64,000 bases of DNA from an uncultured virus (IMG/VR IMGVR_UViG_3300050821_024078) (Duplodnaviria; Heunggongvirae; Uroviricota; Caudoviricetes). Positions within the stretch are counted from its first letter, which is position 1; every line of letters starts with the position of its first letter. A model generated the notes under the pieces. That model worked only from the letters and a program-made list of their open reading frames with translations. It did not search any database and was not told the origin of the DNA. The stretch lies in IMG/VR virus record IMGVR_UViG_3300050821_024078, one strand, 5' to 3'. Shown in pieces: positions 1,514 through 45,700 of this stretch. The position numbers and the translations under genes are program-made.

Positions 1514-2176
1514 ATGAGTGAATTGAAACTGGCTGTTGATGCTGTTGTTTTCGGCTATAATGATGCTGGCTTACATGTTTTACTTATAAAAAGGGGTATT
1601 GAACCATTTAAAGATATTTGGGCTATTCCTGGAGGATTCGCTCAGGTTGATGAGACACTTGAAGAGACCGTAAAAAGAGAACTTAATGAGGAAGCTGGTA
1701 TAACAAATGTTTTTCTGGAACAATTATACACATTTTCGGATATTAGCCGGGATCCCAGAGGTAGAGTTATCTCAGCTGCTTATTACTGTTTAGTATCACC
1801 AAAAGAGCACAGGATTAAAGCTTCAACTGATGCTAAAGATGTGGCCTGGTTTCCTATTAAAGAGTTACCAGAACTTGCTTTTGATCATAAAGATATCATT
1901 AAAGTCGCTTTTGAAAGACTAAAAGGTAAAATAAAATATCAACCGGTTGGATTTGAATTAATGCCTAATAAGTTTACTATAAAAGAGCTGAGGTTGTTAT
2001 ATGAAACTATCTGGGAGAGACCTTTGGAAAGAAGTAATTTCCAAAAAAGAATAAAAACTCTTGATTTGGTAAAAGAAGTGGCGAGTGGTGATCATAAAAA
2101 TTCAACGAAGATTTTCTCTTTTAATAAAAAAGTATACAAAAAATTTAATAAGGATGGTTTCTATTTCGAGATTTAA
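1514..2176 (+). CDS. nrtR: NrtR-family Nudix-related transcriptional regulator (Nudix + C-terminal winged helix)
   Basis: LAVDAVVFGY...VLLIKR...WAIPGGF; intact Nudix box GFAQVDETLEETVKRELNEEAG; RDPRGRVIS; LAFDH; C-terminal FTIKELRLLYE...RSNFQKRI wHTH; adjacent to NAD salvage genes. Confidence 0.92.
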   Translation: MSELKLAVDAVVFGYNDAGLHVLLIKRGIEPFKDIWAIPGGFAQVDETLEETVKRELNEEAGITNVFLEQLYTFSDISRDPRGRVISAAYYCLVSPKEHRIKASTDAKDVAWFPIKELPELAFDHKDIIKVAFERLKGKIKYQPVGFELMPNKFTIKELRLLYETIWERPLERSNFQKRIKTLDLVKEVASGDHKNSTKIFSFNKKVYKKFNKDGFYFEI

Positions 2177-2204
2177 TTGTATTTATTAAAGAATTTAATA
2201 AAAA

Positions 2205-2269
2205 GTGTGAAAATTGGACACACGAAACAATTATTTTCAATATATAAAGTGTGTATAAAAGTTACACAC
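2205..2269 (+). promoter_or_regulatory. Two palindromic candidate NrtR operators (GTGT-N9-ACAC) flanking an ATATATA promoter-like motif
   Basis: GTGTGaaaattggaCACAC (2205-2223) and GTGTGTAtaaaagtTACACAC (2249-2269), with ATATATA at 2240-2246, directly upstream of nadM. Confidence 0.7.
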
Positions 2270-2290
2270 ATAAATTAAAAAAAACATAAT

Positions 2291-3223
2291 ATGCAAGAAA
2301 AATTATCAACAGACTTTTTAAATACAGGTGTGGTTGTGGCGAGATTTCAAGTGCCAGAATTACATCAAGGTCATCATGATCTCATTAGGAAAGTAAAACA
2401 GTATCATAAGAAAGTAATTATATTCCTTGGTGTAACCTCCACGCTTGATACAGATAACCCTTTGGATTATCCAACGAGAGAAAGAATGGTAAAGAAACAC
2501 TATCCTGATATTACTGTTGCCCCAATATCAAACTCTGAATATGATGATGTATGGGCTGAAACTCTTGATAATAAAATCAGGGAGATTGAACCAAGAAATA
2601 AAATTCTTCTATATGGAAGTCGTGATAGTTTTATTAAGTATTACAAACCTTATGGTAAATTTGAATGTATTGACTTCTTACCAGATGTAGATATGTCAGG
2701 TACTGAAATGCGTGCTGAAGTATGTAATGAAGTCAGAGATACCGAAGACTTTCGTCGAGGTCTGATTTATGAAAAACATAACAGCTGGCCTAAAGTATTT
2801 CCAACTGTTGATATTATAATCACAAGAAATAATAAAGGTCCTGAAATTCTTCTTGGTCAGAAACATAAAGAAATGAAATCTGGTAAATGGCGTATTCCAG
2901 GAGGTTTTATTGAGAAGAGACATAGTGGTGGTTTGAATGCTGCTGTAGCTGAGACTAAAGAAGAAACAGACCTGACTATATTACCTGAGAATCTAACATT
3001 CATTACACAGATGAATATTGATGATTGGCGTATTCGCAAATCGAAAGATGTTATAATGACTACTTTATTTCATACTCATATATCAGACATTGATACTAGC
3101 AATTTAGCTAAAGCTGGTGATGATCTTGGTGCTGTAAAATGGTTTAAACTATCCGAAGCTCTTGAAATAATTCATCCTATACACAAACCTTTATTAGAGG
3201 CATACTTACAAAAAATAATTTAA
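2291..3223 (+). CDS. nadM: Bifunctional NMN adenylyltransferase / Nudix (ADP-ribose pyrophosphatase-like) hydrolase
   Basis: ARFQVPELHQGH (HxGH nucleotidyltransferase motif), NPLDY, SGTEMR; C-terminal PTVDIII...WRIPGGF...ETKEETDL...AGDDL Nudix domain. Confidence 0.92.
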   Translation: MQEKLSTDFLNTGVVVARFQVPELHQGHHDLIRKVKQYHKKVIIFLGVTSTLDTDNPLDYPTRERMVKKHYPDITVAPISNSEYDDVWAETLDNKIREIEPRNKILLYGSRDSFIKYYKPYGKFECIDFLPDVDMSGTEMRAEVCNEVRDTEDFRRGLIYEKHNSWPKVFPTVDIIITRNNKGPEILLGQKHKEMKSGKWRIPGGFIEKRHSGGLNAAVAETKEETDLTILPENLTFITQMNIDDWRIRKSKDVIMTTLFHTHISDIDTSNLAKAGDDLGAVKWFKLSEALEIIHPIHKPLLEAYLQKII

Positions 3224-3227
3224 AAAT

Positions 3228-4619
3228 ATGGAAAATCTATTATTACTAACAGACTCTTACAAAGCGACACATGCTAAAGCATATGTTAAAGGTATACAGA
3301 ACATATACTCTTATATGGAATCAAGAGGTGGAAAATATGAAAAAATTATCTTCTTTGGATTACAGTATTACTTAAAGAAATATCTAACTGGTATCCAGGT
3401 TACCAAAGAAAAAATTGATGAGGCTGAAGCTTTCTGGGCTGAACATTTCGGTAGAACTGATTGTTTTAATAGAGAAGGCTGGGAACATATATTGAATGTT
3501 CATGGTGGTAAATTACCACTAAAGATTAAAGCTGTTACTGAGGGTAGTATTATTCCAATCAGCAATGTTTTGATGACTATTGAAAATACTGATCCTAATT
3601 GTTATTGGTTAACCAACTACGTCGAAAGTTTGCTCATGAAACTATGGTATCCAATTACGCAAACCAGTAGATCATATTATATTCGTAAAGATATTGAAGA
3701 AATACTTGAGAAATCTGGAACACCTGAATCTATTGCCTTCCGCTGTCATGATTTTTCCTATAGAGGCGTAACAAGTGAGGAACACGCTGCAATTGGTTGT
3801 GCGTCACATCTACTATCTTTTATGGGCACTGATACTGTTGCTGGTATAAGAATGTTACAAAAATATTATAGTGCTGGAATGTGTGGATTTTCTATTCCTG
3901 CAACAGAGCATTCTATTATGTGTTCTTTTGGTAGAGAACATGAGTTAGAAGCTTGTGAAAATTTCCTTGATACTTATCCAACAGGACTCATTGCATGTGT
4001 GAGTGACACATATAATATTTATGAATGTTGCTCTGATATATGGGGAGGTAAATTAAAAGATAAAGTTATCAACAGAGATGGAACGCTGGTGGTCAGGCCT
4101 GATTCGGGATCGTTTATGGAGATTGTTCCAGAAATATTAGAAATACTTGGAGATAAGTTTGGTTTTACTGTTAATGATAAAGGTTACAAAGTACTTGATC
4201 CACATGTAAGAGTAATACAAGGTGATGGTATGAATCCTGTTACAATAAAACAACTGTATGATCATATTATGAAACTTGGGTGGTCCGCAGACAATTTAAC
4301 CGTAGGTTCCGGTGGTGGTCTTATGATGAAAGATATTGATCGTGATACTTGTAAATTCGCTATAAAAGCTTCAGCAGCTAACATTAATGGTGAATGGATA
4401 GGTATACAAAAAGATCCTATCACAGATAAAGGTAAAAAGTCCAAAAAAGGAAGATTGAAATTGATTGAAGTAGTTGAAGAACCTTATTTTGAAACTATCG
4501 AAGAGAGTGATCCATACTATGACCAGGCTGTGGATATTTTACAAACTGTTTTTGAAAACGGTGAATTATTGATTGAATACAGTTTAGATGAAATAAAAGA
4601 AAAATTGAACAAGGCTTAA
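3228..4619 (+). CDS. nadV: Nicotinamide phosphoribosyltransferase (NAMPT)
   Basis: LLTDSYKATH, HDFSYRG, SIPATEHS, VSDTYN, VVRPDSG, IQGDG, GSGGGL, KDPITDKGKKSKKGRL. Confidence 0.96.
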   Translation: MENLLLLTDSYKATHAKAYVKGIQNIYSYMESRGGKYEKIIFFGLQYYLKKYLTGIQVTKEKIDEAEAFWAEHFGRTDCFNREGWEHILNVHGGKLPLKIKAVTEGSIIPISNVLMTIENTDPNCYWLTNYVESLLMKLWYPITQTSRSYYIRKDIEEILEKSGTPESIAFRCHDFSYRGVTSEEHAAIGCASHLLSFMGTDTVAGIRMLQKYYSAGMCGFSIPATEHSIMCSFGREHELEACENFLDTYPTGLIACVSDTYNIYECCSDIWGGKLKDKVINRDGTLVVRPDSGSFMEIVPEILEILGDKFGFTVNDKGYKVLDPHVRVIQGDGMNPVTIKQLYDHIMKLGWSADNLTVGSGGGLMMKDIDRDTCKFAIKASAANINGEWIGIQKDPITDKGKKSKKGRLKLIEVVEEPYFETIEESDPYYDQAVDILQTVFENGELLIEYSLDEIKEKLNKA

Positions 4620-4636
4620 CAACCTTGTTGTTTTTT
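4608..4636 (+). terminator. Rho-independent terminator after nadV
   Basis: AACAAGG-N8-CCTTGTT followed by a T-run. Confidence 0.6.
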
Positions 4637-4671
4637 ATTCTAAAAATTTCTAATAAATTATCATATAAAGA

Positions 4672-4703
4672 CTTGTTATAGTATTATAACTTTAGTATTT
4701 TTG
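4672..4703 (+). promoter_or_regulatory. Bacteroidota-type primary-sigma promoter
   Basis: CTTG-N20-TATTTTTG, matching TTTG...TAnnTTTG, upstream of the 4726-9466 gene run. Confidence 0.65.
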
Positions 4704-4725
4704 TATATCTTAAAATAACATATAA

Positions 4726-4941
4726 ATGTCGAAGAAATACATCATTCAAATATTACTTTTATTACTGGGAGGTATTCCTGGATTTATTCTTATAATTTGT
4801 GAATTCATATACTGGTTTAAAAATCCTAATTTTACACAAATGGAGATTTTCCAAAAATTCTTTGGTTGGACTATTGGTGTAGTTTTAGTCTCCATTACTT
4901 GTTATTTTCTGTCTGTTCATATTAATAAAACATCCAAATAA
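4726..4941 (+). CDS. Small two-TM membrane protein
   Basis: Two hydrophobic helices; first gene after a promoter. Confidence 0.7.
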   Translation: MSKKYIIQILLLLLGGIPGFILIICEFIYWFKNPNFTQMEIFQKFFGWTIGVVLVSITCYFLSVHINKTSK

Positions 4942-4944
4942 ATT

Positions 4945-5775
4945 ATGTGTATTACAACAGCCCCAGCCCGTCTTTCTAAAACAAAGATACTTGCTTCAAA
5001 AATGGATAATGGTAACCATTTATTATCATACAGCAATACTGCTAAAAATATATCAGGAAGACCAAATGCTATGATCCTTCCTGTTCCTGGTAAATTAAAT
5101 AAGGAATTGTTTTTCGATACAACATTATATAACAATTTTCTTAAAGATATAGAATATCAGATTAAACCTAAATCAAGAGGGGCATCATTAAAATCTTTTA
5201 AAAGTGTTCTTAGTGATGATGTAGAAGATTTTCAAGTTGGTATGTATAGAATTCTTCTTTCCGAGAATTTACCAGCTATACAGAAAGTGTTGAATGAATT
5301 ACCAGAAGCACAAAGACCACAAATATCTCAGGAACTTTATGATTTTTTTGCTTCACATTATGCTGGCTGGAGTTTTGTTGTGTGTTGTTTTGATAGTAGT
5401 AAAGAAACAGATTCACAACCAATAATGTTTGAATATAAACCAATGTATCCGGATTATTTGTATTATCCTGGTATGGATTCACATAATGGTCTTGCTCCAG
5501 AACCTGGAAGTGCTGTTAGAGTTGATCACTGTCTTATGGTACAAGAACTTGGTGAAGATATCAATGGTCGAAAAGCAAATAACTTCTTCAAACAAAAAGA
5601 ATATGTGCCAGAGTTTTTAGTTAAACATTATAATGGTAAAATAGTAGATGGTATAAATTCAAATGGTGACTGGTATGTTAGTATTGATGATCTAAAGGGA
5701 AGAGTTGATAATAAAGATACTTGGTATAAACCTATTAATTTTATTAGAACCACTAAACATCCATCATTAGTATAA
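4945..5775 (+). CDS. Conserved-looking hypothetical protein
   Basis: 276-aa ORF in operon; MCI...YSNTA..NAMILPVP and DSHNG motifs; function unknown. Confidence 0.75.
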   Translation: MCITTAPARLSKTKILASKMDNGNHLLSYSNTAKNISGRPNAMILPVPGKLNKELFFDTTLYNNFLKDIEYQIKPKSRGASLKSFKSVLSDDVEDFQVGMYRILLSENLPAIQKVLNELPEAQRPQISQELYDFFASHYAGWSFVVCCFDSSKETDSQPIMFEYKPMYPDYLYYPGMDSHNGLAPEPGSAVRVDHCLMVQELGEDINGRKANNFFKQKEYVPEFLVKHYNGKIVDGINSNGDWYVSIDDLKGRVDNKDTWYKPINFIRTTKHPSLV

Positions 5776-5777
5776 GC

Positions 5778-6020
5778 ATGAGAAAAAAAGAGATAGCAAT
5801 AGTCGCTGTAGTTTCATATAATTTCAAAACAAAAGAGACAATAACTAAAGAGTTTGTTGAATCTGGTAAGGATAGTAATCCAATAAATGAAGCCGAAGAA
5901 TATCAATATCAGAAATTAAATTTACAATATGCTGAAGAAGACGGTTGGCAACATAAAGTTTTCGCAAATAAAAAAGCTGAACAACTAAGAAGAAAAGTTT
6001 GGAGTAATTTAGACCGATAA
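5778..6020 (+). CDS. Hypothetical protein
   Basis: Operon-packed ORF; stop overlaps the next start. Confidence 0.65.
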   Translation: MRKKEIAIVAVVSYNFKTKETITKEFVESGKDSNPINEAEEYQYQKLNLQYAEEDGWQHKVFANKKAEQLRRKVWSNLDR

Positions 6021-6757
6021 TGGGAAAAAGATTTATAATATCTGATATTCATGGTTCGTTTCTTGCATTTAAACAATGTCTTGAAAGATGTTCATTTAAC
6101 TATGAAGAAGATGAGTTGATCGTTAACGGGGATGTTGTTGATTCTTTTCCTGAAAGCAAAGAATGTGTAGATTTAATTCTGTCATTAAAGAATTATGTGT
6201 ATATAATTGGAAACCATTGTATATGGGCAAGGGATTATTTCAACTCTGATTGTAATATGGCTGTAGCTTCTGGAACCTGGCTTGAACATGGTGGTTTAGC
6301 AACAATAGCTTCATATAAGGATGGTGTTCCGGAATCACATAAACAATTCTTTAATGATGCAAAACCATATTATGTAACAAAGGATAATAAGTTGATTATT
6401 CATGCTGGATATAAACCTGGAGTACCATTATCATCAGAACATTTAGCTTATTATGTTTTCAATCGTGATTTAGTTGAAGCTGCTATTAAAGCTTTGAGAA
6501 ACGATCAAGCATTTAATTTACCTGATTTTGATGAAGTTTTTGTTGGTCATACACCTACTATAAGATATTTTCCTGAGCCAAGACCTGTAAGAGTAGGGAA
6601 TCTTTATATGATTGATACTGGTGCCGGATTCGATGGTGTTCTTACTATTATGGATATTGACAGCAAAAAATACTGGCAGTCAGATCAAGTGATGCGATTA
6701 TATCCTGATCATAAAGGAAGAAACAAACATTCATATAATGAATTGAATAAATTATGA
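6020..6757 (+). CDS. Calcineurin-like metallophosphoesterase (PphA/lambda phosphatase-like)
   Basis: SDIHG, GDVVD, GNH, HAG, GHTP, IDTG motifs. Confidence 0.9.
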   Translation: MGKRFIISDIHGSFLAFKQCLERCSFNYEEDELIVNGDVVDSFPESKECVDLILSLKNYVYIIGNHCIWARDYFNSDCNMAVASGTWLEHGGLATIASYKDGVPESHKQFFNDAKPYYVTKDNKLIIHAGYKPGVPLSSEHLAYYVFNRDLVEAAIKALRNDQAFNLPDFDEVFVGHTPTIRYFPEPRPVRVGNLYMIDTGAGFDGVLTIMDIDSKKYWQSDQVMRLYPDHKGRNKHSYNELNKL

Positions 6758-6951
6758 AACAAATAACAATTGAAATACCCAAAGGTTTTATGAATACTGG
6801 TGTTACAATAAATAATAATTTTATTGCTGATACAAATGATAGTTCTAATTGGGATACATTAAAATTTCCTTTACCTAAACCTGATGGTAAATGGGTGATT
6901 TTTAATATAAAAGAAAAGGTTGTTACACTTGTTGATGTTAGTAAAATATAA
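6754..6951 (+). CDS. Hypothetical protein
   Basis: Operon-packed short ORF. Confidence 0.6.
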   Translation: MKQITIEIPKGFMNTGVTINNNFIADTNDSSNWDTLKFPLPKPDGKWVIFNIKEKVVTLVDVSKI

Positions 6952-7734
6952 ATGGATTTAAACATCATAAATAACGCAAATTTTTTCTATCAACTGAAAG
7001 GGTTCAAATATATTGATTCACCATGGCTTGTTTGTGGGTCTGCTATAGATACTACTACGCCGTCTAAATCAGAAAGATTTACTATAAAAAACAAATTTCT
7101 TGTTGGTTCAGGTGAACAATCATTTATTGATATGATTATCAATGGTAAATTAGAACCTGGTCGATATTGCACTACAACACCATGTTTTCGTGATGAAATA
7201 GAGGATGAATTACATCAGATATATTTTATGAAAACAGAATTGATTGACACATTTGATGTGAGTCAAAATTCTCTTCAAAGAATAATTTCTATATGTAAAG
7301 AATTCTTTGAAACATATACAACAGTAGATATCATAAAAACTGATAGAGATCAATTTGATATCATTGATAAAAAAACCGAAATTGAATTAGGATCTTATGG
7401 AATTAGAAATACAAGAGAATTCTCTTGGATATATGCAACAGGTGTGGCTGAACCAAGACTTTCAAAAGTATTATCAAAAAATAATAAACCTGGTTACCAT
7501 AATAGTTTTATACCAAAAGGCCAGCTTGGTGAATTCAGTAAAATACAAGAAGAGTTTGAGGAATTTAAAGAGACAGTGCTAAATGATAACAAAGTAACCT
7601 CTTTATGTGAACTCTCAGATATGATAGGGGCTATAGAATTATATCTGAATAATAAATTCCCTGGAGTTAAAATAGATGATCTTATTAAAATGAAAGATTT
7701 AAATCGTAGAGCTTTTGAAAATGGAAAAAGATAA
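6952..7734 (+). CDS. Class II aminoacyl-tRNA-synthetase-like catalytic core fused to a MazG/HisE-like all-alpha NTP pyrophosphatase domain
   Basis: LVGSGEQ, TPCFRDE (motif 2-like), FMKTEL, IELGSYG, ATGVAEPR (motif 3-like); C-terminal SKIQEEFEE...ELSDMIGA acidic motif. Confidence 0.7.
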   Translation: MDLNIINNANFFYQLKGFKYIDSPWLVCGSAIDTTTPSKSERFTIKNKFLVGSGEQSFIDMIINGKLEPGRYCTTTPCFRDEIEDELHQIYFMKTELIDTFDVSQNSLQRIISICKEFFETYTTVDIIKTDRDQFDIIDKKTEIELGSYGIRNTREFSWIYATGVAEPRLSKVLSKNNKPGYHNSFIPKGQLGEFSKIQEEFEEFKETVLNDNKVTSLCELSDMIGAIELYLNNKFPGVKIDDLIKMKDLNRRAFENGKR

Positions 7735-7979
7735 TGGAAAATAAAATACAAGTAAGTTTCGAGTGTAACATATCTGGTATCAATAGAAGAGTTGATTTGC
7801 TAATTGATAATCCAGATGGTAAAGATTTAATGGTTTCCGAGATTCAAGATGTTATAAAGCAAATTAAACAATCTATGAAATTGACACTTCCTGATATTGA
7901 GTCTGTGAAAGTTCGTTATAACGAAGATCCGGATGATTATGATAAAGATTATATTAGTCTGATAGGAAAATGGAACTAG
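7734..7979 (+). CDS. Hypothetical protein
   Basis: Operon-packed ORF. Confidence 0.6.
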   Translation: MENKIQVSFECNISGINRRVDLLIDNPDGKDLMVSEIQDVIKQIKQSMKLTLPDIESVKVRYNEDPDDYDKDYISLIGKWN

Positions 7980-8377
7980 TAAAAATAACTCATCGAGATT
8001 CATGCAAGACTTATGCTTTGAAACGAGTAGGATTATCACATATTATTGATATGAATAATGATACGCCAACATTAAAGGATGTATGGGAGTCTGCACTGTT
8101 TGAAGAAATAAGAACACCAGAAGTAGGTTGTTTATTAATTTGGAAATACTCTAAGGGAGATGATGGTTATTATTCACCACATGAAATAGATGAATCTGGA
8201 AGAATTATCTATGTAAAAAGATTCGATTACGGACATATTGGAGTATTTGAATCTGGTAATATGGTTTCTGATGTGAGCTGGGAAGAAGGCTGGGGAGCCA
8301 TGATTCGTTTAAGAAAATATACTGACTTAACAATGCCAAATATAATACTAAAACTAAAAACTACTAATGTATCATAA
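7970..8377 (+). CDS. Hypothetical protein, possible papain-like (NlpC/CHAP-like) Cys-His fold
   Basis: DSCKTYA...PEVGCLLIW...GHIGVF spacing. Confidence 0.45.
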   Translation: MELVKITHRDSCKTYALKRVGLSHIIDMNNDTPTLKDVWESALFEEIRTPEVGCLLIWKYSKGDDGYYSPHEIDESGRIIYVKRFDYGHIGVFESGNMVSDVSWEEGWGAMIRLRKYTDLTMPNIILKLKTTNVS

Positions 8378-9161
8378 ATTTACCTTTTTCTATCAGTCGT
8401 TTTCGCCTTTTTCTCAGTGGTATAAAAAGGATTTCAATATAAACAGCATTACTTTCAATTGCTGTGAACAATATATGATGTATTGTAAAGCAATGCTTTT
8501 TGATGATACCGAAACGGCTAAAGAAATTTTAGAAACGGAGGAACCAAGAGACCAAAAAGCTTTAGGTAGAAAAGTTAAAAACTTCGAACAGATTACTTGG
8601 GACCTATTCAAACAAGATATTGTTTACAAAGGTAACTATGCTAAGTTCGCACAAAATCCAGATATCAAGAAATATCTGTTCGCAACTTGTAATACAACAA
8701 TTGTAGAATCGTCGAAGTTCGATAAAATATGGGGAATTGGGATAGGTATAGATGATCCAGCGAGGTTTGATATAAGGAACTGGGATGGTGAAAATCTTCT
8801 TGGCTACGCTCTTACTTTAGTAAGAGAGGATATTCTTAAGGAAGAAAAGGCTGTTCAAGTTATAAATGATATGTGGAAAACCATTACTGGTGATGTTTAT
8901 CTAAAAGATTTTACTTGCGGTCTATCTGATACTAATACAGAAGTTTTAAATGAACTCAGCTTGCATTATCAACAAATAACAATAGAGAACAAAGATGAAA
9001 ATGATGAAGGAGTTTCAATACTTTCACTTATGTCAACCTGGACAGATCTATTAGTGAATAAAAGACTTGTTGCTCTTACTGACGGTGGTAAAAGTAGAAA
9101 GATTGTTGGTTGGAAGATTATGGAAGACTACTTCTCTTATCCGTTTATATTTAAAATATGA
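8367..9161 (+). CDS. NADAR (YbiA/RibX) family protein with C-terminal extension
   Basis: SPFSQWY, CEQYMMYCKA.LFDD, QKALGRKV, AKFAQN, DKIWGIG, GENLLGYAL. Confidence 0.92.
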   Translation: MYHKFTFFYQSFSPFSQWYKKDFNINSITFNCCEQYMMYCKAMLFDDTETAKEILETEEPRDQKALGRKVKNFEQITWDLFKQDIVYKGNYAKFAQNPDIKKYLFATCNTTIVESSKFDKIWGIGIGIDDPARFDIRNWDGENLLGYALTLVREDILKEEKAVQVINDMWKTITGDVYLKDFTCGLSDTNTEVLNELSLHYQQITIENKDENDEGVSILSLMSTWTDLLVNKRLVALTDGGKSRKIVGWKIMEDYFSYPFIFKI

Positions 9162-9466
9162 AAATTCTATTAACTATATTATCTGCTTGGTTATTTATTA
9201 AGATGTGTGAAACTTCTTTTAATGATATTGAACCTATTAATATGAACGGTTCTCCTGACTCAGGATTTCAAAAGCTTGGCGATATTTATACTTGTCCTAA
9301 TAGAGAAGGACATGAAAAGGTGATATTTGCACCAGTTGAGTTTTTAGATTCTAATAGTATTGTTGCAACAGGAAAAATTGTTGATATCGAAGGTGATGAT
9401 TACATAATAGAATATGAAAGTGGTGAAATGGTGTTTAAACAGTTGAATAGAAATCATATCAAATGA
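9158..9466 (+). pseudogene. 5' part of a secreted/membrane-anchored protein, probably truncated by the TnpB element
   Basis: Signal-like N-terminus; frame can be joined at a GTT microhomology (9442-9444 / 10819-10821) to an open fragment at 10822-10924. Confidence 0.55.
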
Positions 9467-10821
9467 TATATTTTATATACAAAAGTAGTCAAAATATTTA
9501 ATAAGTAAAACACTTATTTTTGATATATACAGTATCAAAAACGATATAATATTTAGTGCAAATAGTAACGATAAAGAAACAACAAAGTATATTTAATGAT
9601 ATTAGATTTATAGAGCAGTATAGTTCAGTTGTAAGGTTTACGTATAATAGAATTATAAAGGATAATATAATTAAAGCTTCGGAATTAGAACATATAGTGA
9701 AATCAACTATGAATAATATTGAACTTTTAGATGCTTCTTTCATTAAGTGTGCAGTCAAAAAGGCTTCTGAGTTAAATAGAGATGAGAAAATTTACTTCGG
9801 TTCAAAAAAAGAGTTCTTCAATAAAAAATATCATAGAAAAAATACTTACAACAAAAATACTCCTATATCAGTTAGAGGTGAAACATCAAAAGAGAGAAAA
9901 GGAAACAGAAAAGCTACACTTGATATCTTAAATAATATGGTGATATTCAAGCCTAAGAAAGGCATCCAGTATGAGATACCATTACAGTTATCAAAAGGTG
10001 AAAAAAATAATCTTTATAAACTACAATTATTATGTGAAGAAGGTAAAGGTTATTTCAATTTTATGATTTCAGAAGACTCTATCTGGATCAGTTACGATCC
10101 TTCTTTAATATCTGAAACAGTATATGAATCTAAGAAGGATAGATATTTAGGCCTGGATTTAAATCCTAATTATATAGGACTCAGTATTATGGATATCAAT
10201 CATAACAATAAAGTAGAAGTTTATAAAGAGATCATTGATTTAAGAAAGTTGAATGAATCAAATACTAATAAAAAGAACTATGAAACAGTAACTATATCAA
10301 AGCATATAATAAGTCTTTGTAAACATTATCATATTGAGTGTGTGGGTTTAGAAAACTTAAATATGAAATCTAAAAATCATAAGAAAGGTAAGAAACTTAA
10401 TCGTTTATTGAATAGTTGGAATAGAAATTCCTTCGTGAATAATTTGAAGAAAAGACTTACATTAAATTCAATAAAATTTAAAGAAGTGAGGCCCGAATAT
10501 AGCTCTTTTATAGGACAGTTAGAGAATCCATTAGATTATGACTCAGTAGCTGCTTCAAAGGAAATTGCTTACAGAAGTTTTCTTCTAAGCAAAGGTTTGA
10601 ATGAATATAATAGTATAAACAGAGAATGTATGAATCTTGTACCTACCCGTTGGAAGGAAATGGTACCTGAGGTTTTCACTACATTTAAAGACTTATACTA
10701 CACATTCAAAAAAAAGAAACTCTTATACAGTTACAGAGTTCTCTATGATTCATCCCATAGTTCTTCTAGCTTAAATTCTTATCGGTCTATGGTAGATCTG
10801 ATAAGATTATAAGTAACTGTT
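9445..10821 (+). mobile_element. Non-autonomous tnpB-only insertion element (IS200/IS605- or IS607-like)
   Basis: Contains only tnpB; hairpins at 9501-9517 and 9517-9541; boundaries inferred from restoring the flanking ORF. Confidence 0.55.
9556..10812 (+). CDS. tnpB: TnpB RNA-guided endonuclease (RuvC), lacking the CxxC zinc finger
   Basis: YSSVVRFTYNR N-terminus; RuvC-I LGLDLNP; RuvC-II GLENL; VRPEYSS; RuvC-III DSVAASKEIA. Confidence 0.88.
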   Translation: MQIVTIKKQQSIFNDIRFIEQYSSVVRFTYNRIIKDNIIKASELEHIVKSTMNNIELLDASFIKCAVKKASELNRDEKIYFGSKKEFFNKKYHRKNTYNKNTPISVRGETSKERKGNRKATLDILNNMVIFKPKKGIQYEIPLQLSKGEKNNLYKLQLLCEEGKGYFNFMISEDSIWISYDPSLISETVYESKKDRYLGLDLNPNYIGLSIMDINHNNKVEVYKEIIDLRKLNESNTNKKNYETVTISKHIISLCKHYHIECVGLENLNMKSKNHKKGKKLNRLLNSWNRNSFVNNLKKRLTLNSIKFKEVRPEYSSFIGQLENPLDYDSVAASKEIAYRSFLLSKGLNEYNSINRECMNLVPTRWKEMVPEVFTTFKDLYYTFKKKKLLYSYRVLYDSSHSSSSLNSYRSMVDLIRL

Positions 10822-10924
10822 AGGTGAAGATGATTTTAGTACTTTACCTTGTGAGAGTGCTGTATTTAATGGTGTATTTTATACTGATCAAAACGGTAAT
10901 TTACATGAAGGCCGGCCTTGTTAA
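10822..10924 (+). pseudogene. Orphan 3' fragment (GEDDFSTLPCESAVFNGVFYTDQNGNLHEGRPC*) of the gene at 9158
   Basis: Open frame with no start codon and coding-like composition, in frame with ORF 9158 once 9445-10821 is removed. Confidence 0.5.
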
Positions 10925-10939
10925 ACAAAAAAAAGCAGC

Positions 10940-11638
10940 TTAGTGCTGCATTTCGTTAGTTTTGCTCATATGTTTTTCCCAAAAAGCATCAAATGGTAGT
11001 CTGTTATAATCATTCATTCCGGATTCATTCATGAAATCACAGGACTCTTGTATGGTATCAAGATAGTATTTTTCTTCCTCTAATGTTAAATTATTTCTTT
11101 GTGCAAAATCATCAATAATATTATGTATAGGTGTATGAATACCATTATCATTCTGAAAACAGCATAAATAGTGTGATTTAATACCTTTTAATATAATAGG
11201 TTTCATAATATTTTGTTTGGTTAATTCTATTAACGGATTTTCCATAGTAATTGTTTCATTTAATAATATAATTTTTGGGCTTCCTTCATCTTTAGTATAC
11301 ATTTTCTTATCTAAAATTGTTGCTATATCTATTTTTAAAGGGTTTTTAGCTTTTACATAAAGTATAATTTTGAATTCTGATTTAAGAAAATATGCATACA
11401 CAGAATCTTCCAAAGATAAGGATTTATCTTTTTTTAACTTATCTAAAAGTTTAATAAATAACATATTAAACGATTTTAGACTCAACTTTGTTCTGTCTTT
11501 TACTCTTATTAACATATTATGATCACTATTATGTGTCCATAATATATCAATATCATTATATTTTATTATAAAACCATTTGAGTCATAAATGATAGTTTCA
11601 AATGATTCAAAGGTCTTTAGAAAATTAAGCTTTTTCAT
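10940..11638 (-). CDS. Hypothetical protein with capsid-targeting-like N-terminus
   Basis: Starts MKKLNFLKTFESFE; ATATATA motif just upstream. Confidence 0.75.
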   Translation of the reverse strand: MKKLNFLKTFESFETIIYDSNGFIIKYNDIDILWTHNSDHNMLIRVKDRTKLSLKSFNMLFIKLLDKLKKDKSLSLEDSVYAYFLKSEFKIILYVKAKNPLKIDIATILDKKMYTKDEGSPKIILLNETITMENPLIELTKQNIMKPIILKGIKSHYLCCFQNDNGIHTPIHNIIDDFAQRNNLTLEEEKYYLDTIQESCDFMNESGMNDYNRLPFDAFWEKHMSKTNEMQH

Positions 11639-11648
11639 CTTTTATATA

Positions 11649-11678
11649 TTGTTTTTTAGATATGTTTTGCTAGATTTG
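11649..11678 (+). promoter_or_regulatory. Bacteroidota-type promoter
   Basis: TTG-N19-TAGATTTG upstream of the HD gene. Confidence 0.55.
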
Positions 11679-11683
11679 TTCTT

Positions 11684-12280
11684 ATGATACTTTTCAAAGA
11701 TATACAAGTTACAAATTTTGACGACCTTTATAATGTCGCTCCACAGGCTGTTCAACAAAAATTGAATGATAATAAGGAATTGCGTGAAAATCCAATTCAT
11801 CATCCCGAATTAAGTGCCTTTGAACATATAAAAATCGTAACAGACCGGTTATTTGATACTAATGATGTGAATCTAATACTTGCTGGGTTATTTCATGATA
11901 TTTGTAAAAAAGAAAGTGCTGTGGCCAGAGAAGATAGTGAATATTTCCTTTGTAAGGACCATGAAAAGAAAGCTGTTGATTTTACATTAAGACACACCAA
12001 TTTTATTCATAGTTTCCCTGGTGCCGATTTAGGTAAGATCCTTTGGATAGTTAATGAACATATGCGAATCAAAGTTATCCAGGATATGCGAGGTCAGAAA
12101 AAGAAAGAGCTCATCAATAATATATGGATTAAAGATCTTGTAATATTCTCTAAAGCTGATAGGATGACAATAGAATGGAATTATCCTTTATTATTGACAA
12201 AGTTAGAGGCTTACAAAAATGATCCACATAATTTAGTGGTTAGTCCAAGTATAATAAAGAACATGAAAAAGGCTGATTAA
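11684..12280 (+). CDS. HD-domain phosphohydrolase
   Basis: HHPE..AFEH, AGLFHDICK, DHE, EHM, ADR. Confidence 0.85.
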   Translation: MILFKDIQVTNFDDLYNVAPQAVQQKLNDNKELRENPIHHPELSAFEHIKIVTDRLFDTNDVNLILAGLFHDICKKESAVAREDSEYFLCKDHEKKAVDFTLRHTNFIHSFPGADLGKILWIVNEHMRIKVIQDMRGQKKKELINNIWIKDLVIFSKADRMTIEWNYPLLLTKLEAYKNDPHNLVVSPSIIKNMKKAD

Positions 12281-12299
12281 TCTAATCAGCCTTTTTCAT
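12263..12299. terminator. Bidirectional terminator
   Basis: ATGAAAAAGGCTGATTA-atc-TAATCAGCCTTTTTCAT between convergent genes. Confidence 0.85.
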
Positions 12300-12304
12300 A
12301 ATTG

Positions 12305-12997
12305 TTAAAACAAATCCATAAATTCATCAATTATAGAATTCATATCCTTAGAAGATTCTGCTTCTCTTTCTTTATATTCTTTACTAACTTTTTTAGATTT
12401 TTTCTTCTTTTCTTTCTTGATAACATCTTGTTTCTGAGTTTCTATAAAATCATTAGAAGTCATCCATTTTCTGTGTTCTAAAGAAAGAACTTCTTCATCC
12501 ATCTGTATAATGAAATAACTATGAGTAGATAGTACTATTTGAGCACCATTACTAACGGCCTTTTTAATAGCTTCTACGACCTTTAATTGACTTCTGATAG
12601 ATAATCCAGCTTCAGGTTCATCAATGAATATTATTGTGTCCTTAGCTTCTTTTAAACCCAATATAAAAGGTAATAAAGCTTCGCCATGGCTTTGGAATTT
12701 ACTTTGTAGTATTGTCAAAGGATCTTTCGAATGCTCAATTGATTGTACAACTCTTGGATTATCTTTTTCAGTATCAAAGAAGAAAAAACTTACTGGACCT
12801 GTTGTCTTTATATCAACTTTAGGGTTGATTTGTTTTGTGAGTATTTGTAACAAAGTACTTTTTCCAGCAGATTGATCTCCAACTAATAAATTTAATCCAG
12901 GTTTAAAAGTAAATGTTTCACCTTTATCAAAACAAATATAATCTTCGAGAAATTCTACACTTGTTAAGTATAATCCTTTATTTAGTTCTTTTTCCAT
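12305..12997 (-). CDS. Stand-alone ABC-type (AAA_21-like) ATPase
   Basis: Walker A GDQSAGKST, signature SHGE, Walker B IIFIDEPEAGLS, STHS. Confidence 0.9.
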   Translation of the reverse strand: MEKELNKGLYLTSVEFLEDYICFDKGETFTFKPGLNLLVGDQSAGKSTLLQILTKQINPKVDIKTTGPVSFFFFDTEKDNPRVVQSIEHSKDPLTILQSKFQSHGEALLPFILGLKEAKDTIIFIDEPEAGLSIRSQLKVVEAIKKAVSNGAQIVLSTHSYFIIQMDEEVLSLEHRKWMTSNDFIETQKQDVIKKEKKKKSKKVSKEYKEREAESSKDMNSIIDEFMDLF

Positions 12998-13476
12998 TAT
13001 TTATTTTGTATTGATAATAACATCTTAATATATTCTATAGCGAATAGTATAGCTATATCCAAAGCTTTATGCTTAGATTTTATGCCATCCCTATAATATG
13101 TTTCCCATAAGCAAGATGAGGATGGAAGACCAGAATAATCCATAGGATAAATAGAACTTGTCCATAGTTGAGCATCTCTTGAAAATTCAGAACGGATTTC
13201 TAGTTTCCATTTTTCTTCAAACCAGGTAATAATTTCTTGTCTTGTCGGTGCTGATATAGTTAATTTATTACAGTTAGAATTTCTTCTAGCAATAAAATTA
13301 CCTAAAGTATCGTGAAAACACTTTGATTCACTACTTGAAAACATAACATCTTTTAATTCTTTACAATTTTTACGAAAATATGTTATACATGGTTCATTAA
13401 ACCCTATCTCCATGATAGCAAAAGCAATATCATATGAGACATAAACTTTTTCTATGTCTTCTGATTTATTTTCCAT
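12997..13476 (-). CDS. Hypothetical phage protein
   Basis: YVSYDIA..IMEIGFNEPC...SAPT motif; operon-packed. Confidence 0.7.
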   Translation of the reverse strand: MENKSEDIEKVYVSYDIAFAIMEIGFNEPCITYFRKNCKELKDVMFSSSESKCFHDTLGNFIARRNSNCNKLTISAPTRQEIITWFEEKWKLEIRSEFSRDAQLWTSSIYPMDYSGLPSSSCLWETYYRDGIKSKHKALDIAILFAIEYIKMLLSIQNK

Positions 13477-14018
13477 TCCTGATACAATTTATTAAATTCT
13501 TCAATTCTACTAAGATGATTAAATGCTATATCATCACTAATTATTTTTGGTATTGCGTCAATAGGAAACCAACCTAATGCTGATACTTCTCCATCAACAG
13601 CATTCTTGGAAGAAATTTCTGGATAGGTATCTGTTTCATTCAAATCTAAAACTATACCATAATGTAGAGAAATATTTTGAACATCACCTATTGGAACTGT
13701 TTTAACCTTCCAGGGATTGTCCATATGATCAAATTTAATATGATTTGAAAAATCGTCCAGATAAACACCGGTTTCTTCCCAAACTTCTCTTTTCGCTGCT
13801 TCAGTACCATTTTCATCCCAATCTAAGTAACCACAAGGAAGATTCCATTTTCCTATACAGTTTGGACTAGCTGGCCCCCTCTGTCCTAATAGAACCCAGA
13901 TCTTATTTTCGAATAATATCAGAACTGTTGTAACAACAGCAACAGATCTTGATATCCATATTTCCCGGCCATCAACATTGAGACATTCGTTTTCTCTATT
14001 TGTAAATCTTTTAATCAT
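13452..14018 (-). CDS. Nudix hydrolase
   Basis: WNLPCGYLDWDENGTEAAKREVWEETG Nudix box, IAFNH; likely start MIKRF at 14018. Confidence 0.9.
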   Translation of the reverse strand: MIKRFTNRENECLNVDGREIWISRSVAVVTTVLILFENKIWVLLGQRGPASPNCIGKWNLPCGYLDWDENGTEAAKREVWEETGVYLDDFSNHIKFDHMDNPWKVKTVPIGDVQNISLHYGIVLDLNETDTYPEISSKNAVDGEVSALGWFPIDAIPKIISDDIAFNHLSRIEEFNKLYQEWKINQKT

Positions 14019-14517
14019 TAAAAAATGTAATATATTTTGAGAAATAATTTGAGTTTGGATAACATCTTTCAACTAAATGTTCTATATCAGAACCACATGT
14101 ACCAAGAATGACTCCATCGAATCTAATAGACTCATCGTTTAATTTTTCTAACTCTTCTTCAGAAAAATTATCCTTTTTACTGTATAACACTTCTAAGTAG
14201 TTAAGATATCCTTTAACTATAAAATAACAAAGCACTGGTTCTAACCAGTATTCAGGTTTCATGTGATCATTTGAACCTTCGGATTCAGGATTTCGATATA
14301 AATATTCCCAAAATATTTGTTTAGATAAAGGATCTTTATCTATAATAGGAATTATATCAAATGTTAATAGATCTGTATATTTGTTTACTTCATCTTTTAA
14401 TCCACAATAATATGATCCAAGTGCTTCACTTAGTTCATCTACTCTGGAAATATCTATTTGAAATTTCTCAGCGTAATCTTTTAATTTATTTACAATCACA
14501 AAGTTCATAAGCAGCAA
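14011..14517 (-). CDS. Hypothetical protein
   Basis: Operon-packed ORF; start uncertain. Confidence 0.6.
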   Translation of the reverse strand: MLLMNFVIVNKLKDYAEKFQIDISRVDELSEALGSYYCGLKDEVNKYTDLLTFDIIPIIDKDPLSKQIFWEYLYRNPESEGSNDHMKPEYWLEPVLCYFIVKGYLNYLEVLYSKKDNFSEEELEKLNDESIRFDGVILGTCGSDIEHLVERCYPNSNYFSKYITFFND

Positions 14518-42716: not shown

Positions 42717-42756
42717 ATAAAAAAGGCTCTGAAATATTTCAGAGCCTTTTTTATTT
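42715..42756. terminator. Bidirectional terminator (perfect 42-bp palindrome)
   Basis: AAATAAAAAAGGCTCTGAAAT/ATTTCAGAGCCTTTTTTATTT between convergent genes. Confidence 0.85.
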
Positions 42757-45700
42757 TAAGTATCACCGAATTGGCCAGAATCCCATATAGTATTTATTGC
42801 TATCCCCCCAGTAAATACAGCGTTTAAAACCAGTGAGTCCTTCATTATACCGTTGAAAAATTGACCATTCCTAAATACGGATACTACATTAGGTCCATTG
42901 ATATAATCACTATCTGTTCCTGTAGTGTTTGGTAGTATTGATATAAGAGCAACAGGTAAAGTATAATCATAACAATCATTTCCTGAAGTACCTGATGTAC
43001 CACTAGTACTATTAGATAAATCATAAATATTAACATATCCTCTGAATGAATTTGAAATAACATCATATGTAGATACTAAACCTGAAGTTCCAGCTAATAG
43101 AGGATAATATGCTAATAAATAACTACCACCATTTGTTCCAGCAGTTCCCTCATTATAATATGTTGTAATTCCTGAAGTACTGTACAATTGGTAATTTGAC
43201 ATGCTGTCTTCGATCTCTCGACCATTGAGACCACCGTTCCATACTTTTAGTTCATATAGAGCACCTTCAACATTGTCTATATCAATATTACTAATAGTTC
43301 CACTTGTACCATTAGTATATACACCAGAACTCGTTGAAACTAATACATTATTTTTCCATAATTCCTGAACACCATTATATGTTTGAGCTGTTATATAATT
43401 ATATTCTCCTAGATTAATATTTAAACTTAACTCAGATCCAGATACTGTATAAGTTATTTCATTACCATCTAAACTGAGATTAAGTTCTGGGTGATTGATT
43501 AAGTTTTTAGTTTGAATATCTTCAACACTAAACCAAAATTGAACACTATGATCAGATAAATTAAAATTTGTTAAGTGTGTATCAAAATAGTTATGTAGGT
43601 TATAATTTGGATTCAATAATAAAGATGTCTCTGATAGAAGCCTGTCGCCATAATTGTTTTCATTCGCTATAATAATGTAGTCAGGATTTGAACTGTCCAG
43701 AATTATGTGGCTGGCTGGCTCAGAATTATATCCAAAGAATTTAGCACTATTTGTAATAAAACCAAAAGAAGTATTAGGTTCACCAATAATAGTTATAGTG
43801 TTTTGTATAGTAGGATCAAGAAAATCTTTAAATCCATGTGGTTGAGTGAAATCCAGACGAATATGATCATCATCTAAACGATATATTGCTTTTATATTTA
43901 GACTAGACTCAAAGAGACCAAAATGCCATGTTGCATTTGTCCATGTGGAGGCTCCGCTTAGAGTCCCACCATACCAATCACCACCTGTAAATAAAACGTT
44001 TTTAAATGTTGTATATTTATAGCGTGTAGATGGTAAATAATTCCCATTAGAATCTTGATTAATACCATCGAATACAAACCCTCCAGAAAATAATCCTGCC
44101 TCCCATGTGGCTTTAAGTATTGGGCTTGTTGCTGTCCCAAAACGACTAGGTACTGAACTTGTTTGTGACCATAAACCATTGAGCCAGGTACCGTTTCCAA
44201 AGTCACCACCAATCCAAATACCTGAAAACCAAGTACTTGGGAGATTAGAACTACTAAATACACCATTTTGAAATGTACTATTGATAAAACTACCACCCAT
44301 AAAGTTACCTGAAGTCCATATACTATTTTCGAAGCTTCCACCAAACCACTGACCTGAAGTCCATATACTATTTTCGAAGCTTCCACCAAACCACTGACCA
44401 TTATGCCATACTGAATGTACAGTATCAGATTGGAATGTACCACCAAGCCATGTTGAAAGAGTATTATCGTTTGTATCAGTTGCTACATAAATGTTTAAAA
44501 GATCTTGTACTTGGTAAGAATACCAATCTCCTTGAGTCCAAGTACCTGAGTACCAAGTACCTGAGTACCATTTCGAACCACTCCATATACCATCAAACCA
44601 GCTCCCTTGGTACCATATTAATCCAGTTGAATCCTCTCCAATTATAGCATTATCAACTTCAGCATTTAGTATCCATGGATATTTAGTTGTTAATGATTGT
44701 AGTGTTAAACCATCAGTTAATGTAAATGTATAGTTAGTAAAATCAAGACCTGTTAATTGAAACCAATCAGATTGTAAATGATAATTGTAAGGTCTAACAG
44801 TTATACCTTTTTTAGGTTGGAAGTCACGTCCCATCTCAAATGCATCCACTGGTCTATAAGCAAAATTAGGATCATCAAGCCAGTCTATAACATTCATTAC
44901 TACATCACCAGCTTCATCTATACGAACAATTGCTGATATATTTTTTTTAATATTATCATCGTTAAGAAGATAGTTTGCGTATACTCCGCTTGTTTTAGTA
45001 AAATTATAAACCGCCTTATTAAATGGTGATTCGATTACACCATTAGTTCCGAACAAGCCATCTGTAGCTGGAGTAGGAAAAGATATATCATCAGTAAACT
45101 CAAGATCTTTAGATATTTCTATCAATTTATTTCGTGACCTTATAGATACCTGTGTTGTAGTTTCATTTATTAAAATATTTAAGTTTCTATCTACATAAAG
45201 AAGTACTCTTGCATTACCTAAGAAATTTGTTTCATATGTTTTTTTAATAATATAACATCTCTTAATTGTTGTGTTTCCTTTTGTAATATCAACAAAGGTT
45301 CCAGGTAAAAAACTATCTAATAAGTAATAATTACTTGTTAGATCTGTTGGGTCAGAGAAATTTTTAGTAGCATAAAATATGTTGTCAGTTAAAGTAAATT
45401 CATTAGTTGGAAACCCATCTATATTGAATACTTGTGAAGGCATATCTATTTCATAATCATAAGTGAATATCGGATCCAAATTTTCTAAGATATTCATTAT
45501 CTCATAAGTAGGCCCATAGACATTTCCAGATTCGTATTTTATTGGTATACTATAATTACTCACACCGACAGTCCATGTGACAGTAGTCTCAAGATTATAA
45601 TATTTAGTAGTATTATTTACATTACCACTAATAGTAATTACACCTGGTTGATCAATTGTTAAATTATAAGCTTCAGATAATAAGTGATTATCAAAGGTAT

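Follow-up and report, generated by a model that had tools for sequence, protein, structure and literature searches.

In bacterial and archaeal chromosomes, TnpB elements are known as selfish nucleases guided by RNA. Among them, elements of the IS607 type cross over at a dinucleotide (GG) that is common to both ends and to the target, without any duplication (PMC6188088). The guide-bearing RNA of IS607 TnpB (reRNA) extends past the right end, and the target-adjacent motif (TAM) includes the crossover core (PMC10711439, PMC11061315). Loss of the zinc finger has been reported in some large TnpB branches, some branches being mainly viral (PMC10691335), and TnpB genes have already been noted in phages (PMC12607003). 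TnpB, IS607 TnpB, omega RNAs, zinc-finger loss and phage TnpB genes are thus already known. The literature searched contains no description of a phage-borne IS607-like lineage with a GT core, a GTGT motif, a scaffold embedded in an open reading frame (ORF) and repeated in-frame gene splitting, and no account of how TnpB elements sit and act in phage genomes. The locus described here lies in a stretch of 64,000 nucleotides from an uncultured virus (IMG/VR record IMGVR_UViG_3300050821_024078), referred to below in its entirety as the window. The best explanation of positions 9435-10820, to which we give a probability of roughly 0.6, is a non-autonomous, tnpB-only derivative of the IS607 type, issued from a largely phage-borne lineage without zinc finger, which has split a gene of a soil phage and would follow a homing cycle. 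The features of the locus are the following:

9435-10820, plus strand: inserted element of 1386 bp, tnpB-only and IS607-like, with boundaries free to shift by as much as 3 nt (TGT microhomology)
9431-9434, plus strand: GTGT motif of the left flank, candidate TAM, found at the junction of six out of six independent copies
9435-9555, plus strand: left end of 121 nt, providing a substitute ORF tail, (V)FKQLNRNHIK, with its stop at 9464-9466
10814-10820, plus strand: right-end terminus TAACTGT, compared in 11 copies
9158-9434, plus strand: 5' part of the interrupted phage gene, 92 codons and one base, taken from the ORF list and ending in the conserved flank motif
10821-10924, plus strand: severed 3' end of the interrupted gene, with TA finishing a Leu codon, 33 codons (GEDDF...GRPC) and a stop at 10922-10924
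9556-10812, plus strand: tnpB-like gene, 418 aa, GTG start, with RuvC residues D201, E266 and D329 and no zinc finger
10620-10820, plus strand: predicted omega-RNA (reRNA) scaffold, almost wholly inside the 3' end of tnpB, based on folds, covariation, constraint and an RNA contig
10727-10733, plus strand: internal ACAGTTA (SYR codons), pairing with the right-end terminus
10821-10840, plus strand: predicted guide-encoding flank, also the presumed target in the empty allele, by analogy with IS607 and IS605 TnpB

The ends of the element were located by comparison of copies lying in different surroundings (loci found in the searches are numbered with the prefix L). In six independent copies, those of the window, L003, L004, L008, L007 and L081, the left junction reads flank-GTGT | (T/A)(A/T)N(A)AAC..., the sequence being GTGTT-TA-AACAGTTGAATA in the window and GTGTT-AC-AACAGTTGAATA in L003, where a second copy, 81% identical, occupies an unrelated intergenic site. 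In L008, L004, L007 and L081, the left-end homology runs on from GTGT, each time in a different flank. On the right side, the similarity between the window and L003 ends after ...TAAGTAACTGT. The right ends read AACTGT in ten copies and ATTTGT in one (L005, hence TTGT), and the base that follows varies over these 11 copies (T, G, C, G, T, G, T, T, G, C, T). A script was used to fuse the GTGT end of each left flank to the first base beyond CTGT. A junction-spanning ORF with at least 32 codons on each side was obtained in five of the six loci (codons before|after the junction: window 93|33, L004 46|46, L008 59|32, L007 59|46, L081 38|36); the insertion in L003 is intergenic and its joined flanks give 22|5 codons. 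The chance of one fixed rule being in frame at five gene-internal insertions is about (1/3)^5. The element is placed at 9435-10820 because the shared sequence of the copies stops there and the joining of flanks restores ORFs. The last GT, or TGT, of GTGT is common to the right end and constitutes a candidate crossover core; the TGT microhomology at both junctions, in the absence of duplication, is as expected for serine-recombinase crossover at a short shared core. GTGT itself is rare, with 336 occurrences on both strands of the window, or about 0.0026 per position.

A sequence-only reading of the window had placed the element at 9445-10821. ORF 9158 does read ...TTT AAA CAG TTG AAT as was stated, and deletion of these 1377 nt is confirmed to be in frame, yielding ...KQL-GEDDF...GRPC with the stop at 10922-10924. 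The left boundary at 9444|9445 had to be given up: the sequence shared by the six copies begins 10-14 nt to the left of it and sets the junction at 9434|9435, TTAAACAGT being left-end sequence. The difference amounts to 9 nt and therefore leaves the proposed frame and tail unchanged, the residues FKQ being coded by the element; the product restored earlier is the same frame with three additional residues coded by the left end. The heptamers AACAGTT (9438-9444) and AACTGTT (10815-10821), described as inverted copies at the junctions, are reverse complements of each other, without being terminal inverted repeats. Since each is a near-palindrome of the form AAC-N-GTT and only the middle base sets them apart, their reverse complementarity says little. 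CAGT, taken from blastn end-points, was also considered as left-junction motif and was dropped, since left-end homology extends further left.

The gene order is ORF 9158-9466 (102 aa), the 418-aa ORF 9556-10812, about 110 nt, a hairpin and a convergent gene. The 3' end of ORF 9158-9466 reads ...TTT AAA CAG TTG AAT...TGA, and the sequence downstream of the tnpB-like ORF 9556-10812 reads GTAACTGT|TAGGTGAAGAT. When the flanks are joined at 9434|10821, the frame continues as ...GEMV|LGEDDF... to the stop at 10922. The two portions were scored by a codon-usage log-likelihood trained on 55 window ORFs. The 5' part reaches +40.6 bits over 9158-9444. The 33-codon tail reaches +18.7 bits in the fused frame, a score attained by no off-frame window, compared with 14.2 +/- 5.5 for true in-frame windows of 33 codons; the other open frame over the tail scores -11.9 bits. 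Two of the three frames are open across 10823-10921, so that openness alone is weak evidence for a coding tail and codon usage is the stronger argument. The fused frame of the tail contains no ATG, GTG or TTG and is closed upstream by a TAA at 10814-10816. The tail at 10821-10924 thus looks like a freshly severed 3' gene end. The proposal that a gene was split and that its 3' end persists beyond the right end is sustained by both the coding score of the tail and the joining of flanks.

The 418-aa protein encoded by the element is accepted as a divergent TnpB on the basis of profile, alignment and structure-model comparisons. The TnpB-related model TIGR01766 of NCBIfam is matched at 34.3 bits against a cut-off of 32 (E 2.5e-8). 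A sequence search against PDB chains returned nothing significant. The AlphaFold2 (AF2) model of the protein has a mean pLDDT of 78.8, and the top structures retrieved with Foldseek are Cas12f, Cas12k, the ISDra2 and ISFba1 TnpB and Fanzor2, aligned over about the full length with E-values of 1e-9 to 1e-4 and low TM-scores of 0.22-0.31; the TnpB matches include 8H1J and 8EXA (ISDra2-type comparison) and 8IAZ (ISFba1 TnpB). D201 (DLNPN), E266 and D329 (DYDSxAA) are invariant across 25 aligned family members, and no CxxC zinc finger was found in any of these 25 between RuvC-II and RuvC-III (the E266-D329 interval); the three RuvC acidic residues and the missing zinc finger had both been read correctly from the sequence. 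The C-terminal extension of about 85 aa bears the conserved motifs TRWKEM and SYRF, which also serve as RNA elements. By analogy with characterized TnpB proteins, the 418-aa protein is predicted to act as an RNA-guided, TAM-dependent nuclease.

At least 1605 proteins, mostly of 410-450 aa, are related to it at E<=1e-3, a few of them carrying the source label IS605 OrfB. Large viral contigs are where most of the family is found: when viral contigs were scanned with a profile, 139 relatives were confirmed and 75 distinct loci retained from them. Many of these are located on contigs of 100-550 kb that bear several copies apiece. Bacteria and archaea, sampled at one genome per species, contributed only 31 loci, all at no more than 39% identity and mostly on contigs of metagenome-assembled genomes. 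In many relatives, an ORF ending in ...LRRxxxK was seen by translation directly upstream of tnpB. This upstream ORF carries the Pfam Resolvase domain in the six relatives tested (6/6), with an additional MerR/HTH in L025. The lineage is regarded as IS607-like because these upstream ORFs are of the resolvase type, that is, serine recombinases. The copies of the window, L003, L004, L005 and L008 are tnpB-only. The window element has no IS607-type serine-recombinase TnpA with N-terminal helix-turn-helix (HTH) upstream of tnpB; it is thus a non-autonomous derivative, given that relatives possess tnpA. No Y1 transposase was detected in the scanned ORFs of the window. The same dinucleotide GT (as TGT) stands at both junctions of the six copies, with neither duplication nor terminal inverted repeats. 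Taken together, these comparisons support a tnpB-only mobile element of the IS607 type, the branch being, by its sequences, a large and mostly phage-borne part of the IS607 transposon family. The earlier notion of a tnpB-only mobile element is strengthened by the 81%-identical copy at an unrelated site and by the size of the family. The 64-kb window contains a single element copy, and the left-end 20-mer was found in IMG/VR on the contig of L003 only.

The last 200 nt or so of the element form a conserved structure that reaches the right end. The 3' end of tnpB is unusually conserved at the nucleotide level, for instance in ACCCGTTGGAAGGAAATG (TRWKEM codons), within which AAG is kept despite the AT-rich genome. 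Independently of any folding, synonymous codon identity was measured at identical residues for nine pairs of relatives: it amounts to 0.76-0.90 over the last 80 codons and to 0.54-0.73 upstream. Single folds of the window and L003 have in common a 5' hairpin with ACCCGTTGGAAGGAAATG in its loop and two more hairpins displaying compensatory changes (CUAUG/CAUAG versus CUACG/CGUAG and UCUA/UAGA versus UCCA/UGGA). Consensus folding adds a long-range helix in which the right-end UAACUGU, hence the AACTGT of the right end, pairs internally with ACAGUUA (10727-10733). Covariation in this helix is seen in L005 and L016. Searching 71 sources with a covariance model of the 3' domain gave 18 matches, with one match in the window at 10726-10820. 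In the resulting alignment, which was fitted to the model, 90.6% of the cells pair compared with 75.2% in shuffles (0/500 reach 90.6%), 14 of 19 pairs show changes on both sides, and pairing falls to 32-49% in slid controls; in helix 1 of the model, pairing reaches 95.4%, with both-sided changes in three of six pairs. RNAalifold gave almost no structure on a broad MAFFT alignment of 12 sequences, the structure being obtained only with closer sets and the covariance model. Rfam has no match in the element, RAGATH-18 included. A contig of 205 nt from soil metatranscriptome run X2, which belongs to another study, corresponds to 10620-10823 with no substitutions and one extra A in a homopolymer. 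Cover of the stretch in this run is confined to 10620-10823, and missing cover elsewhere is no evidence according to the caveats of the data.

A structured RNA at the right end, beside the would-be guide, had been anticipated by the sequence-only reading, and the conserved structure, the constraint and the RNA contig at 10620-10823 agree with it. Its guide position was right as to the flank and off by one base, the guide being predicted to begin at 10821 (TAGGTGAAG...), one position later than proposed. The TAM was expected within TTTAAACAG; this is left-end sequence, and the conserved motif of the flank is GTGT (9431-9434), which would serve as TAM judging from the six junctions and from the IS607 precedent. 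With up to 3 mismatches allowed, the predicted guide at 10821-10840 occurs only once in the window. Contigs of DNA run X1 bridge both junctions of the occupied allele and include variant element copies, among them one with an L003-type right end. In this run, the summed contig depth is about 12-13 over the flanks but 40-56 within tnpB (9567-10660), with short contigs carrying 13-41 differences, which points to several related copies in the same soil sample.

The proposed cycle can be briefly summarized as follows. The element inserted just after GTGT inside a small phage gene. The insertion cut off the last 34 codons, now intact and promoterless at 10821-10924, the left end giving a short substitute tail. 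RNA from 10620-10820, together with read-through into the flank, would provide a guide identical to what stands after GTGT in the uninterrupted allele. In sibling or co-infecting genomes, TnpB and this RNA would then cut those copies of the gene that lack the element (TAM GTGT, target TAGGTGAAG...), sparing the element's own right junction, whose CTGT may protect it. Recombinational repair from occupied genomes would copy the element in. New sites would be reached by a serine recombinase acting in trans from full-length relatives, with crossover at the shared GT. The serine recombinase of the relatives makes crossover at a shared dinucleotide the relevant precedent, and not the peel-and-paste of IS200/IS605. 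The predicted empty allele is 1386 bp shorter and would read ...GAAATGGTGT|TAGGTGAAG.... The identity of the gene, the ends, the insertion into a gene, the conserved structure and the occurrence of that stretch in an RNA library are demonstrated, and nuclease activity, TAM, guide and homing are inferred. Homing in mixed infections is plausible because phage recombination is efficient and the logic matches that of phage homing endonucleases (PMC13565253). A bolder version, which is advanced tentatively, would make the whole lineage a programmable homing drive, in which the RNA of each copy guides to the gene that it has split and converts element-free sibling or rival phages via GTGT while sparing CTGT.

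A number of observations weigh against this interpretation. The guided_TnpB model of NCBIfam, NF040570, gives the 418-aa protein only 21 bits for a cut-off of 100, and neither Pfam nor PHROGs profiles match it. No transposase or recombinase was found in the 53 ORFs scanned out of the 58 non-nested window ORFs of at least 75 aa, as the sequence-only reading had it for the transposase. The shared core would be GT and not the GG of the studied IS607 elements. GTGT is equally conserved whether it is counted as flank or as element, its placement in the flank resting on the frame argument. GTGT and CTGT differ by one base, which would be a thin margin for self-avoidance. The empty allele and an orthologue of the interrupted gene are both absent from all collections searched, and the restored 126-aa protein is for this reason a reconstruction. 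For the orthologue or empty allele of ORF 9158, a word-index protein search returned only the ORF 9158 protein itself, a viral-contig scan returned none, a metagenome scan gave only L078, which is the contig of the window itself, and L079, a spurious match to quinolinate synthase, and an exhaustive phmmer search gave only multi-lysozyme repeat proteins matching residues 8-66. The pair counts come from the fitted alignment mentioned above. The RNA contig extends 3 nt past the right end and not over a full guide of 16-20 nt; contigs cannot show strand, true ends or level, and carry-over of DNA in the library is possible. Lastly, the contigs of DNA run X1 show the occupied form only and none joins across the element, an absence that is no evidence according to the data caveats.

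Some of these points could also be accommodated by a stranded and inactive copy, brought in by one helper-driven transposition, with TnpB and RNA as relics or serving element retention only, and no homing. The window without recombinase in the scanned ORFs, the single copy in 64 kb and the DNA contigs of the sample showing no empty allele would all fit such a scenario. It is nevertheless considered unlikely: the ORF is intact, its catalytic residues do not vary within the family, constraint acts on synonymous sites and RNA pairs, the severed gene tail is undecayed, which argues for a recent event, and the contig from the RNA library covers the scaffold. The fact that the family is nearly confined to viral contigs, and that large phage genomes often harbor several copies, would also suit a phage weapon or regulator directed against DNA of a rival phage or of the host, comparable to intron endonucleases in phage competition or to TldR and not devoted to element spread; host-directed phage derivatives of TnpB are indeed known (10.1101/2023.11.30.569447). 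Such a function appears improbable here, as the predicted guide is merely the local flank, unique in the window, the copies behave like transposons in occupying unrelated sites with unrelated flanks and in splitting genes, and the catalytic triad is intact, unlike that of TldR.

Two further alternatives bear on the boundaries. Should those of the sequence-only reading be correct (9445-10821), TTTAAACAGTT would be native gene sequence containing the TAM. This deletion is likewise in frame and makes use of a GTT microhomology in the window, but GTGTT-NN-AACAGTTGAATA is common to the window and L003 in unrelated flank, the homology continues in L008, L004, L007 and L081, the second GT is missing in two of these, and the right junction of L003 has no GTT, all of which makes these boundaries very improbable. 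Just as little credit can be given to a crossover at the first GT, whereby ORF 9158 would natively end in ...EMVR-stop and the tail would belong to a separate, overlapping ORF of 37 codons with a GTG start. The first GT is present in all six copies and the joined sequence does yield a small GTG-started ORF; this junction, however, leaves each of the six loci without a spanning ORF of 32 codons or more per side, whereas GTGT| provides one in five of six.

Additional observations were made on other copies of the element. GTGT is in the same codon phase (GTG T..) in four of the five split genes (9428-9434 in the window). In L004, L008 and L007, the left end then supplies a TAA within two codons. 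These features could reflect selection or simply a bias towards codons starting with G. Pfam searches on the halves of the four other split genes gave only a sub-threshold match of EamA to the right half of L007 (profile positions 93-133 of 135), and a search for syntenic loci through the upstream gene of L007 found only its own contig. In L005 (2440-2500 and 3749-3800), the element lies inside an HNH-endonuclease-like gene; about 29 nt following the left GTGT are an imperfect copy of the right flank (about 24/29) and not left-end sequence, with ...CEEDNSKKGA and CEECNSKKGA on either side of the element, possibly a repair footprint. L032, L036 and L018 harbor two to three element copies or fragments within 6 kb, some of them head to tail. 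The tnpB frame is broken by stops (table 11, often TAG) through which tblastn runs in 12 large viral contigs (L045, L047, L049, L053, L054, L055, L062, L067, L069, L072, L076 and L077), suggestive of stop-codon-recoded phages. The hexamers ACAGTT/AACTGT occur at 9439, 9984, 10515, 10727 and 10815, that is, five times in or at the edge of the 1.4-kb element, for 43 occurrences in the whole 64 kb (0.67 per kb); they may be bound by the recombinase, as at IS607 ends, or be due to chance.

The remaining features concern the surroundings of the element. The window is AT-rich (29.8% G+C) and phage-like in gene content, with NAD-salvage genes, PhoH, a UvsW-like helicase and a DNA methylase. A scan of the region for terminators returned four, where 0.2 were expected, including the following:

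10935-10949, no strand assigned: hairpin resembling a bidirectional terminator, situated between the interrupted gene and convergent gene 10940-11638

A phage-type promoter had been proposed at the ATATATA of the left end. Sigma-70-like matches over 9300-11100 are at chance level (12 found, 11.5 +/- 3.6 expected), which lends it no support; the T-rich/ATATATA motif at about 9521-9529 is conserved in five of six aligned left ends and may be a promoter of another type. The phmmer matches to residues 8-66 of ORF 9158 (9179-9355 in the window) are long proteins with 3-9 repeats, single-domain lysozymes being absent from them; the four that were checked consist of tandem C-type lysozyme domains, and the aligned stretch spans the motif CETSFN...SPDSGFQ. 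This similarity may be spurious, the E-values being probably inflated by the summation of near-identical repeats. Syntenic loci sought through the downstream neighbour in the window amounted to one weak match (L002), and a blastn search of INPHARED matched the NADAR gene only. The NAD-related cluster extends over 1514-9161 and comprises a NUDIX/NrtR-like gene, a second NUDIX, NAMPT/NAPRTase, a metallophosphoesterase and NADAR; a further NUDIX gene is found at 13452-14072. An ORF of 2962 aa on the minus strand (42756-51644), whose sole Pfam match is BNR/YCF48-like, presumably encodes a giant structural or fibre protein.

The locus and its relatives provide a testable case with exact ends, a candidate TAM of 4 nt, a guide position and a compact nuclease of 418 aa, to which are added the lack of a zinc finger, a scaffold folded into its own coding sequence and the repeated splitting of phage genes. 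Should the nuclease be active, it would offer a natural system for RNA-guided homing in mixed infections and a small editor with an unusual TAM. Should it be inactive, a clean annotation is still gained, both of a mobile element and of a truncated gene called as a 102-aa protein.

Compared with the IS607 elements ISXfa1 and ISFba1, the lineage is alike in that tnpB lies downstream of a serine-recombinase tnpA in full-length relatives, in the lack of terminal inverted repeats and of target duplication, in the same short sequence at both junctions, in a structured RNA that ends at the right end beside the flank and in a predicted fold resembling that of ISFba1 TnpB (8IAZ). The window copy differs by the lack of tnpA and of the zinc finger and by its residence in a phage. 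Its core would be GT, with GTGT in the flank, whereas the reported TAMs are GGG, AGGAG and GAGGG (PMC10711439, PMC11061315). The scaffold lies inside the ORF, only its last 8 nt being beyond the stop, whereas in ISFba1 the reRNA and the coding sequence are described as separate (PMC11061315), and neither RAGATH-18 nor any other Rfam family is matched. With IS200/IS605 elements such as ISDra2 it shares the RuvC D/E/D residues, an omega RNA overlapping the 3' end of tnpB, a guide from the right flank and a TAM in the left flank, the proposed role in re-cutting empty sites, and the Foldseek matches 8H1J and 8EXA. It differs from them in the partner of its relatives, a serine recombinase and not a Y1 HUH enzyme, in the absence of the zinc finger and in the C-terminal extension of about 85 aa with TRWKEM and SYRF. 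The major clade RIIIr-4, as described in PMC10691335, is also devoid of the zinc finger and has His in place of the RuvC-III Asp, which the present family keeps (DYDSxAA). IStrons, which combine IS607 or IS605 with a group I intron, are likewise tnpB elements inside genes; no group I intron (Intron_gpI) was matched here in 8000-12500 at E<=5, and the interrupted gene is apparently truncated and not spliced. Phage homing endonucleases (Seg, Mob and those encoded in introns) resemble the element as selfish phage nuclease genes, and it could spread as they do to related phages during mixed infection, by cutting the element-free allele (PMC13565253). In contrast to them, the element has transposon ends and copies at unrelated sites, and its target would be chosen by an RNA guide and a short motif and not by the protein. 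If the homing-drive version is true, RNA-guided nucleases would constitute a class of phage homing endonuclease and a force in the competition between phages.

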